Below, piece by piece: positions 12,689 through 14,289 of a stretch of 32,766 nt of DNA. The DNA comes from Blastocystis sp. subtype 4 (Eukaryota), in assembly GCF_000743755.1 (NCBI RefSeq), contig NW_014569443.1, positions 1 to 32,766 of the forward strand, written 5' to 3'. Position 1 is the first letter of the stretch; the number at the start of each line of letters is the position of its first letter. The notes under the pieces were generated by a model that saw nothing but the letters and a program-made list of their open reading frames with translations, did not search any database and had not been told where the DNA came from. The translations under genes were made by a program, and so were the position numbers.

Positions 12689-14289
12689 ATGATAGATACT
12701 TGTCTTTGTTTTCTGTCAGTCTCTTTACAGATCGTTTTGAATCTAAGAATAATGAATCGACTTCCTTCACATCGCTAGCTCTGTATGTTAAGGATTCTAC
12801 ATAGAACTCTAGTGAGAACAAGGAATCACCAAGTCCTCTTCTCTCTCAAAGGATATTGAATCACTTTCCGTCCATATGTCTCTGCAAGAATTCTAGCAGG
12901 TGCTAGGAGTTGTGTACAATAACGCAAGGAGGTTCGTGTACCAATTGCTCCTAATTCAGCCAGAGCTTCATCTTGTAACTCGATTCCTTCTGTCAATGCT
13001 CGAATAGATATGATGGTAATCATTTCCTTCACACTGTAGTTTACTGTACGAATGATCAATGAACGGTCCAACAGATCCACAGGTATCCCATGAGGACTCA
13101 CATAATCTGTTCCTCTAATTCCTCACTCTTCTTTCTCATACCTACTTAACCAAACACATTCCTCGATTTGTAGCAAAGATCACCACAGGAGCAAAAGCGG
13201 ATTCTAATGCTCGATTCAGATATGTGAAACACTCAATATCCAGCATGTGAACCTCATCAATGAACAACACACCAGGAATCAATTCAGCTATACCATCTTC
13301 AATATATTTGTTAACCATTCGATTCACTTCCTCTCGGAGTTTCTCTGTGATTTCAGTCTTACGCTGACGCACTAGTTGGTTCATGAGTCCAGCCAAATCA
13401 TGACCTCCTTGAGGCTGTGCATTTGCTATATCCAGATCATGCAGAGTCACATCCTGAATCACCTCCTTCTTCTTGAACACTTCTCCCTTCGGTATCGGCA
13501 CATACTCATCTGCTTCCAGATCAAATTCAGAGGCATAACTACACTCAAATCGATTCCTTGATCCTACGCGTCGGATCGGCCCACACGCTTGATAACTCCA
13601 CTATTGGCCTCGATGTAGATCACATCGCCCACTTGTACCTTCTCCTTCTCGATATTCTCAAACAGACTCGCATCTAAACGCAGCTGTTTGCTTCCCTTCG
13701 AGGTTTTCAAACCAATCACCACATGACTGATTGTCTTTCCATATCCACCGAGAGGATCTTCAGCTTCTTCTGGAGTCAATAATGTCACTTCTCCTTCATA
13801 CACTTCCTTTGTTTCTCGGATACGGAGACCAATAGCACGACGGAAGTTCTCCATCAATACTTCGGTCTTTTTCACTTCACTTGAATATACTTCCGAGGCA
13901 CTCATGGGACAGAATGGGACCTAATGATTGAAATCAGAAAATGATGATACTTTGGGACCTAGTTGTTGTGCAATTGCCATAGCCAGAGCAGTTTTGCCTG
14001 TTCCAGGAGGTCCAGCTAATAACAGAGCACGACCTGCCATTTTCTTCAGATTGATCATATCTACAACCATTCCTGCAGCCTATATCATGAAATACACCTC
14101 TCCAGTCCCACTTCTCTCGCTTTCTCCTGACCAACGAGACCCGAATCTACTGAAATGGCATTACCATTTTCATCAAGTCCAAGACCCTTAATATGTGAAT
14201 GTGCAGAAATACGTCGTGTCTTCTTGCTAGCACTGTTCTGTTCTGTTACCTAGAAAGATAACATGTGGAAAAAGCATATTTACTTTCAT
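12689..14289 (-). CDS. RUVBL1: RuvB-like AAA+ ATPase 1 (Rvb1/pontin); stop predicted to be created by polyadenylation at T12689; last intron is U12-type
   Basis: [88 protein letters not shown]...KDKYLS. Confidence 0.97.
12781..12856 (-). other. Minor-spliceosome (U12-type) intron with AT-AG termini, 76 nt, in RUVBL1
   Basis: 5' end ATATCCTTTG; U12 branch box TCCTTAAC followed by ATACAG; removal restores the frame [17 protein letters not shown]. Confidence 0.85.

Follow-up and report, generated by a model that had tools for sequence, protein, structure and literature searches.

The last intron of the RUVBL1 gene of Blastocystis sp. subtype 4 (ST4) is a spliced intron with AT-AG ends. We hold with high confidence that it is a likely substrate of the minor (U12) spliceosome and that its 3' end is likely picked for lying at a short, constant distance from the branch point, not for the last letter of the intron. 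In the window, that is the whole stretch of 32,766 nt analyzed here (contig NW_014569443.1), RNA defines both ends of this intron (intron 6), its removal from mRNA and a TAA stop codon made by the poly(A) tail. Its position, its 5' box and the 6-nt spacer behind its branch box are conserved in four sequence groups, one ending the intron in AC and three in AG, and its signals point to the minor spliceosome as the machinery that removes it. Minor splicing and poly(A)-made stops of Blastocystis were already known, as were the rarity of AT-AG among U12 introns and switching between AC and AG (PMC1557818). By itself intron 6 is one among hundreds in a genus known to keep minor splicing; it adds one member to a known class, and this class in Blastocystis departs from textbook rules in a way that can be read from published data.

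RUVBL1 (pontin) occupies positions 14289-12689 of the minus strand and has seven exons and six introns; the GC content of the window is near 40%, in keeping with ST4. Exon 1 (14284..14289) holds two codons, and the intron behind it was placed from the reading frame and the start of gene model P0007 rather than from reads. Exons 2 (14112..14249) and 3 (13951..14079) are supported by RNA contigs and the gene model, exons 4 (13568..13920) and 5 (13146..13538) by domain matches as well, and exon 6 (12857..13114), which encodes the end of TIP49 and the start of the TIP49_C lid, by the gene model and its domain match. The last exon (12689..12780, 92 nt) is supported by RNA. After removal of intron 6 the frame comprises 456 codons plus a single final T at 12689, which gives a protein of 456 aa. 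The exons match the domains TIP49 (PF06068, P-loop) and TIP49_C (PF17856, lid), and exon 6 scored 89 bits against human RUVBL1 and 63 bits against RUVBL2. Judged by these matches the gene is RUVBL1/pontin (TIP49a), nearer to RUVBL1 than to RUVBL2, as a preliminary description of the same DNA had already named it. Without splicing of intron 6, RUVBL1 loses its last 31 residues, which make up the lid's C-terminal helix region. With 100% identity, exon 5 matches a protein of Blastocystis sp. BT1, an ST4 strain (PMC10690189), and KNB44305.1 (subtype 4) falls into the same protein cluster, its listed introns 2-5 being those of the window gene. Intron 1 (14250-14283, minus strand) has 34 nt versus 25 nt in the KNB44305 model, whose N-terminus differs as a result; in the BT1 model the 34-nt form is found. 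Two RUVBL1 accessions each were found for the strains BT1 and JDR and for the newer NandII assembly, and these may be duplicates or haplotype copies.

Introns 1-5 of the gene are GT-AG introns of 29-34 nt, while intron 6 (12781..12856, minus strand, 76 nt, phase 2, codon 426) is the only one starting with AT. Its 5' splice site ATATCCTTT (12848..12856) fits the U12 donor consensus RTATCCTTT (PMC1635337), and its branch box TCCTTAAC (12787..12794) matches the U12 branch consensus TTCCTTRAY near the 3' end; the orthologues carry CTTAAC, CTTAAT or CTTCAT. Among orthologues and ST1 introns the second A of the box is invariant, and in ST1 the first varies (C, A, G, T), so that the branch A likely lies at position -7 or -8, in intron 6 at 12788 (-8). 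The used AG (12781..12782) follows 6 nt after the box, and a polypyrimidine tract is absent, the putative branch A being followed only by CATACAG. All 25 RNA-supported neighbouring introns listed in the window are GT-AG introns with a median of 30 nt. Intron 6, with its AT start and 76 nt, lacks the traits of Blastocystis major (U2-type) introns (GT, GC or GA start, about 30 nt) and shows those of U12 introns of subtype 1 (ST1), namely an AT start, a YTTNAY box, a spacer of 6 nt (range 5-7) and an AG end. Its length lies outside the usual ST1 U12 range of about 37-53 nt, which makes it a tail case and does not bar membership. With a likely branch A at -8 it also falls short of the 10-20 nt branch-to-3' distance of animal and plant U12 introns, a typical trait that is not part of the class definition in PMC3584512.

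In the window, four sites of the form [AG]TATCCT[TC] were found, and only that of intron 6 has a CCTTAAC box downstream. A strict U12 cassette pattern, written after the case was seen, had a single occurrence in the window, and one of 100 Markov simulations also produced it; a loose pattern was not enriched in the window (2 seen versus 3.9 expected). When the window and the 17 related loci described below were scanned with a loose motif, no further U12 intron emerged that was convincing, the remaining hits being judged exonic or antisense by eye, and an Rfam scan of the window gave no minor snRNAs (2 chance hits). An RNA-supported GT-AG intron of 47 nt at 10022-10068 (minus strand) carries TTTTTAAC 8 nt before its end; it is larger than its neighbours and has a major-type donor.

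A search for sequencing runs returned 11, of which 9 contained part of RUVBL1, and seven (X1, X2, X3, X4, X8, X10 and X11) were compared with the window. X1 skips many GT-AG introns of 28-47 nt over 20 kb and carries poly(A) ends; it behaves as mRNA, being spliced and polyadenylated throughout, and is putatively cDNA-type. In one X1 contig (depth 269) the last two RUVBL1 exons are joined, with exactly the 76 nt 12856-12781 skipped. A shift of the cut by one base is possible, and splice-like ends result only in the AT..AG reading. Neither another join nor a retained intron 6 was found among the X1 contigs, in which rare forms are lost. X2 (depth 3), which is on record as RNA, crosses intron 6 unspliced, and since it also retains a neighbouring GT-AG intron it likely represents DNA. 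X2 and X3, which is likewise on record as RNA, contain only unspliced pieces at a depth of 3-4, X3 reaching neither end of the intron, and X8, X10 and X11 (compared at 80%) leave the junction uncovered. Direct RNA support for intron 6 thus comes from one contig of one run, X1. The unspliced X2 sequence (12499-12870, 0 differences), X4 and the loci L001 and L002 agree letter for letter with the genomic intron, which shows that the AG end is not an assembly error. The join of 12857 to 12780 and the AT..AG boundaries proposed in the preliminary description are borne out by the cDNA, and the features from which it had argued, the likeness of 5' site and branch box to the U12 consensus and a length of 76 nt next to neighbours of about 30 nt, were found again here. 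At window positions 1900-2320 very high depth and several variant contigs were obtained in X1, X10 and X11, a picture like that of a multi-copy gene with high expression.

For this donor, the stretch between 12830 and 12756 offers 11 AG or AC sites, of which three preserve the frame: the branch-box AC (70 nt, adding two residues), the AG at 12781 (76 nt) and a TAG at 12777-12775 (82 nt, removing two residues). Eighty-two of the 120 given homologues cover the junction. The 76-nt form scored highest against all 82 and aligned without gaps to 80, whereas the 70- and 82-nt forms were gap-free in none. The earlier claim that a single AG restores the frame goes too far, since the TAG and the branch-box AC keep it as well. 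The nearer AC (12783..12784, minus strand), 4 nt after the box, would be followed by a stop after four codons, just as had been stated earlier, and its use was not seen. The in-frame TAG (12775..12777, minus strand) lies 13 nt past the likely branch A; no use of it was seen in X1, whose contigs drop rare forms. According to reviews (PMC3584512, PMC8199999) the optimum branch distance of human minor introns is 11-13 nt; the figures for terminal bases likewise come from reviews. The TAG at 12775 thus sits in frame at the human-optimal distance, yet the cDNA uses another acceptor. As acceptors, the AC at 12783, the TAG at 12775 and the AC at 12787 are ruled out by cDNA and alignment. Two GTGATT donors were considered as well. 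The internal one at 12829 leaves a stop or an insertion, and the upstream one was used with a GG end in a 2017 ST1 model and dropped by newer ST1 models; both are absent from X1, the contigs of which show neither GT-AG splicing from a GTGATT donor nor use of an AC acceptor.

A metagenome scan yielded 17 related loci with 86-100% identity in exon 6, forming four sequence groups, and these count as four independent cases, not as 17. In 17/17 loci the intron lies at the same base of the same codon, carries the 5' box ATATCCTT and has a spacer of 6 nt after the box. L001-2 have the AT-AG intron of 76 nt seen in the window, L003-5 an AT-AG intron of 38 nt and an exon identical to the ST1 strain JDR protein P0023, L006-11 an AT-AG intron of 40 nt with the box CTTCAT, and L012-17 an AT-AC intron of 40 nt. 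By group this amounts to three AT-AG and one AT-AC, by locus to 11/17 AT-AG; AC and AG differ between orthologues with everything else fixed. The proteins P0010 and P0011 (454-456 aa), whose exon is identical to that of L006, cross the junction as an AT-AG splice predicts, and so do the ST1 models P0023, P0125, P0126 and P0127. A fifth group (P0020, P0021 and kin), known from protein sequences, is translated into the intron with residues as from an ATATCC donor, which hints that this donor may be present there too. The search for further relatives gave none among viral contigs and only 23 archaeal TIP49 loci among prokaryote genomes.

For ST1, 346 U12 introns described as 'typically AT-AC' were reported by Gentekaki 2017, and the four minor snRNAs U11, U12, U4atac and U6atac together with seven specific proteins were reported in ST1 and ST7 (PMC5608401, Table S1). 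Larue and Roy 2023 counted 253 minor introns, 77% of them AT-AC, with a median of 39 nt (PMC10639083). File 32 of PMC5608401 lists annotated introns, with ends as set by that annotation; it contains 336 introns starting with ATATCC, all in the ST1 sheet and none in the ST4 sheet, the ST7 sheet being covered in part. We counted 102 of the 336 by hand (places 1-42, 161-190 and 307-336), three blocks that are not a random sample and in which some genes may be duplicates. In these, 58 introns ended in AC, 39 in AG, 2 in AT, 2 in AA and 1 in CG, so that 97/102 ended in AC or AG and the AT-AG share was 38% (Wilson interval 29-48%). The spacer from box to end measured 5 nt in 60, 6 nt in 34, 7 nt in 6, and 4 and 8 nt in one each, which places 100 within 5-7 nt. 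The length was 37-53 nt in 99, the others having 70, 131 and 178 nt. AT-AG and AT-AC introns of ST1 have in common the box, the spacer and a length of 37-53 nt, which sets them off from the majors of about 30 nt. The box met most often in ST1 is CCTTCAC. All 25 ST1 introns starting with GTATCCTT measured 29-33 nt, the major size class, so that a GT-AG minor class is not evident among these; other GTATCC starts were left out. The first 21 places in file 32 where ATATCC occurs anywhere, sorted by eye, comprised 11 intron starts, 6 buried cassettes and 4 chance-like occurrences. The 6 buried U12 cassettes are complete, 37-40 nt long (3 AG, 3 AC) and lie inside longer, probably wrong GT-AG models.

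AT-AG introns make up 0.89% of minor introns in animals and 0.27% in plants, where spacing is 10-20 nt. The preliminary description had regarded the AT-AG ends and the short branch distance as exceptional, which is right for animals and plants. In Blastocystis, as read from intron sequences, both are usual and not exceptional: AT-AG ends were found in 39/102 ST1 introns and 11/17 loci, short spacing in 100/102 and 17/17.

In the proposed mechanism U11 would pair with ATATCCTT and U12 with TCCTTAAC, bulging A12788, as expected from established U12 biology. AT-starting introns are tolerant of their last base (PMC1635337). The pattern of ends suggests that step two would pick an A-N pair 7-8 nt from the branch A, accepting C or G about equally as last base and bypassing an AC in -6 geometry as well as a TAG in -14 geometry. 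If the 3' end is set by such a short ruler from the branch A, AC and AG would be interchangeable and nearer or farther sites would lose. The major introns of the window have A at -8 in 12/25 and T at -10 in 18/25; major introns thus also pull to an A near -8, and the short spacing alone cannot separate the two spliceosomes. The same geometry in major introns of Trichomonas and Giardia implies that the catalytic core can work at such a distance, and the change to a short distance may be common to both spliceosomes and part of intron shrinkage.

We lean, with moderate confidence, towards a wider reading in which the minor spliceosome of Blastocystis has been re-tuned: it would handle almost only AT-starting introns, set the 3' end at a distance of 7-8 nt past the branch A and maintain AT-AG as a stable class of about the size of AT-AC, kept at this site across three divergent groups. 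Such a machine would process AT-AG introns at about 40-fold their animal share and ignore an in-frame AG at the human optimum. It would also break with the view of AT-AG introns as poorly spliced, short-lived intermediates, and it would mean that Blastocystis minor introns are undercounted, many being hidden in wrong gene models.

Length is the one trait special to the ST4 copy, which at 76 nt exceeds those of the three other groups (38-40 nt) by about 36 nt. In the extra part lies a 33-nt GT..AG stretch (12797..12829, minus strand), a weak candidate for a nested major intron. Removal might then proceed in two steps, the major spliceosome first cutting the nested intron (12829-12797) and the U12 intron of 43 nt following; this would supplement the best explanation and not replace it. 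The stretch lies between the two U12 boxes, its loss would bring the intron from 76 to 43 nt, inside the ST1 size range, and it outscores 107/112 exonic decoys. However, it scores below 22/25 real introns (leave-one-out), shuffled interiors hold some GT..AG of 28-35 nt in 64% and one of equal score in 15%, and long U12 introns of 70, 131 and 178 nt exist in ST1, the 70-nt one without an internal AG. No intermediate was seen in the X1 contigs, which drop rare forms. A nested major intron is thus not supported beyond chance, and we consider the two-step removal unlikely. The stretch 12797-12829 starts with the same seven bases as the end of the upstream exon, a weak sign of a nested intron or of a local duplication.

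A second reading, to which we give a still smaller chance, is that the major or a mixed spliceosome removes intron 6 despite its U12-like signals, AT-AG members being on their way to becoming major introns. The CAG end with an A at -8 recurs in many of the window's major introns, AT-AG introns have been suggested to be a transitional state between subtypes (PMC1557818), and major AT-AC introns occur in human, where A-type introns require CENATAC (PMC8280824). Against this, ATATCCTT is conserved in all four groups, one of which has AT-AC ends at this intron, the AT-AG and AT-AC introns of ST1 are alike in box, spacer and 37-53 nt length and unlike the 30-nt majors, and ST1 and ST7 possess the minor machinery. 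An artefact, be it an AC end wrongly read as AG or a false junction from reverse-transcriptase slippage or assembly, is hardly conceivable and already largely refuted: the two ends share one base and the join is seen in one RNA contig, but X2, X4, L001 and L002 repeat the genomic letters, one shared base is presumably too short for slippage, and the join gives a gap-free protein and recurs in proteins of two other groups.

Intron 6 finds its closest parallel in the ST1 U12 introns (PMC5608401, PMC10639083), which belong to the same genus and show the ATATCC donor, the YTTNAY box 5-7 nt from the end and A-type ends. The ST1 orthologue of intron 6 itself stands in the published list as OAO16093_4 with mis-set GT..GG ends. 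Differences are the 76 nt of the ST4 intron against the ST1 median of 39 and the published ST4 list, the sheet of which has no ATATCC-starting intron. A-type AT-AN introns of animals and plants share the donor and branch consensus, the tolerance for the last base and switching between AC and AG among orthologues (PMC1635337, PMC1557818 Table 3, PMC8280824). In contrast to these lineages, Blastocystis has about 38% AT-AG and a branch at 7-9 nt, and GT-AG minor introns, the main class elsewhere (74%), were not seen. In the minor system of Physarum polycephalum, too, the branch position is narrow and particular to the lineage, and non-canonical ends are numerous (bioRxiv 2020.10.12.336362); this system differs in a branch A 9-12 nt from the end, a TTTGA box with a matching U12 change, mostly GT-AG ends and about 20,000 introns. 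Major introns of Trichomonas and Giardia show box + 4 nt + AG, the geometry of intron 6, and those of Yarrowia 2 nt (PMC2483917), yet these are U2-type introns of intron-poor genomes while intron 6 is U12-type in an intron-rich one. No text stating what fraction of Blastocystis minor introns is AT-AG, or how far their branch lies from the 3' end, was found in the literature searched, which lay outside bioRxiv supplements, intron databases and subscription journals; the logo in Fig. 1A of PMC5608401 may show both. One preprint pairs 'Blastocystis' with 'AT-AG', but AT-AG refers there to animals and plants, and PMC11347168 names Blastocystis once without intron ends.

Annotation has obscured this intron repeatedly. 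Both public ST4 RUVBL1 models miss intron 6, read into it and stop at 435 and 438 aa (P0007, P0124), and the ST1 model P0129 likewise runs into the intron. The 2017 ST1 model (P0128, OAO16093_4) has a 47-nt GT..GG intron at the cost of three codons. The figure of 346 U12 introns in ST1 is likely an undercount, and estimates of minor-intron number and loss in Blastocystis, such as the 11/12 'lost' in B. hominis (PMC10639083), may be effects of annotation. Reviews describe AT-AG as disfavoured and the U12 branch as lying 10-20 nt before the 3' end; Blastocystis departs from both rules on a large scale and offers a natural system for studying 3' end choice by the minor spliceosome and the purpose of first-last base pairing.

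The stop codon of RUVBL1 is made by the poly(A) tail. The X1 contig that skips intron 6 carries a poly(A) tail after T12689, the first base of codon 457, so that T12689 and poly(A) make the TAA stop, as had been suspected from the sequence. The rule described for poly(A)-created stops in Blastocystis is an in-frame T that receives the tail and a motif four bases on (PMC4159000, Klimes 2014), and RUVBL1 shows both: as in that study T + poly(A) forms TAA, and the TGTTTGTT-like motif is represented by TGTTTGTC (12677..12684, minus strand), starting four bases past the poly(A) site. Here the stop is derived from cDNA in an ST4 gene, whereas Gentekaki 2017 only inferred the mechanism for ST4 and Lind et al. 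treat their own strains. In the last RUVBL1 exon of L003-L017 the offset of the motif is identical in all 16 loci reaching it. In L003-5 and L012-17 a genomic TGA begins at the predicted cut, yet the tail would still supply the stop of the mRNA; L006-11 have the motif as TGAGTGTT and no stop at that codon. At 12665-12689 the poly(A) motifs of the convergent genes RRS1 (plus strand) and RUVBL1 (minus strand) stand back to back, forming one 15-base inverted repeat with a common middle base (12670-12684), and X1 tails begin at 12665/12666 (plus) and 12689 (minus). This motif pair is unique in the window, and the perfect repeat is not kept in the orthologues.
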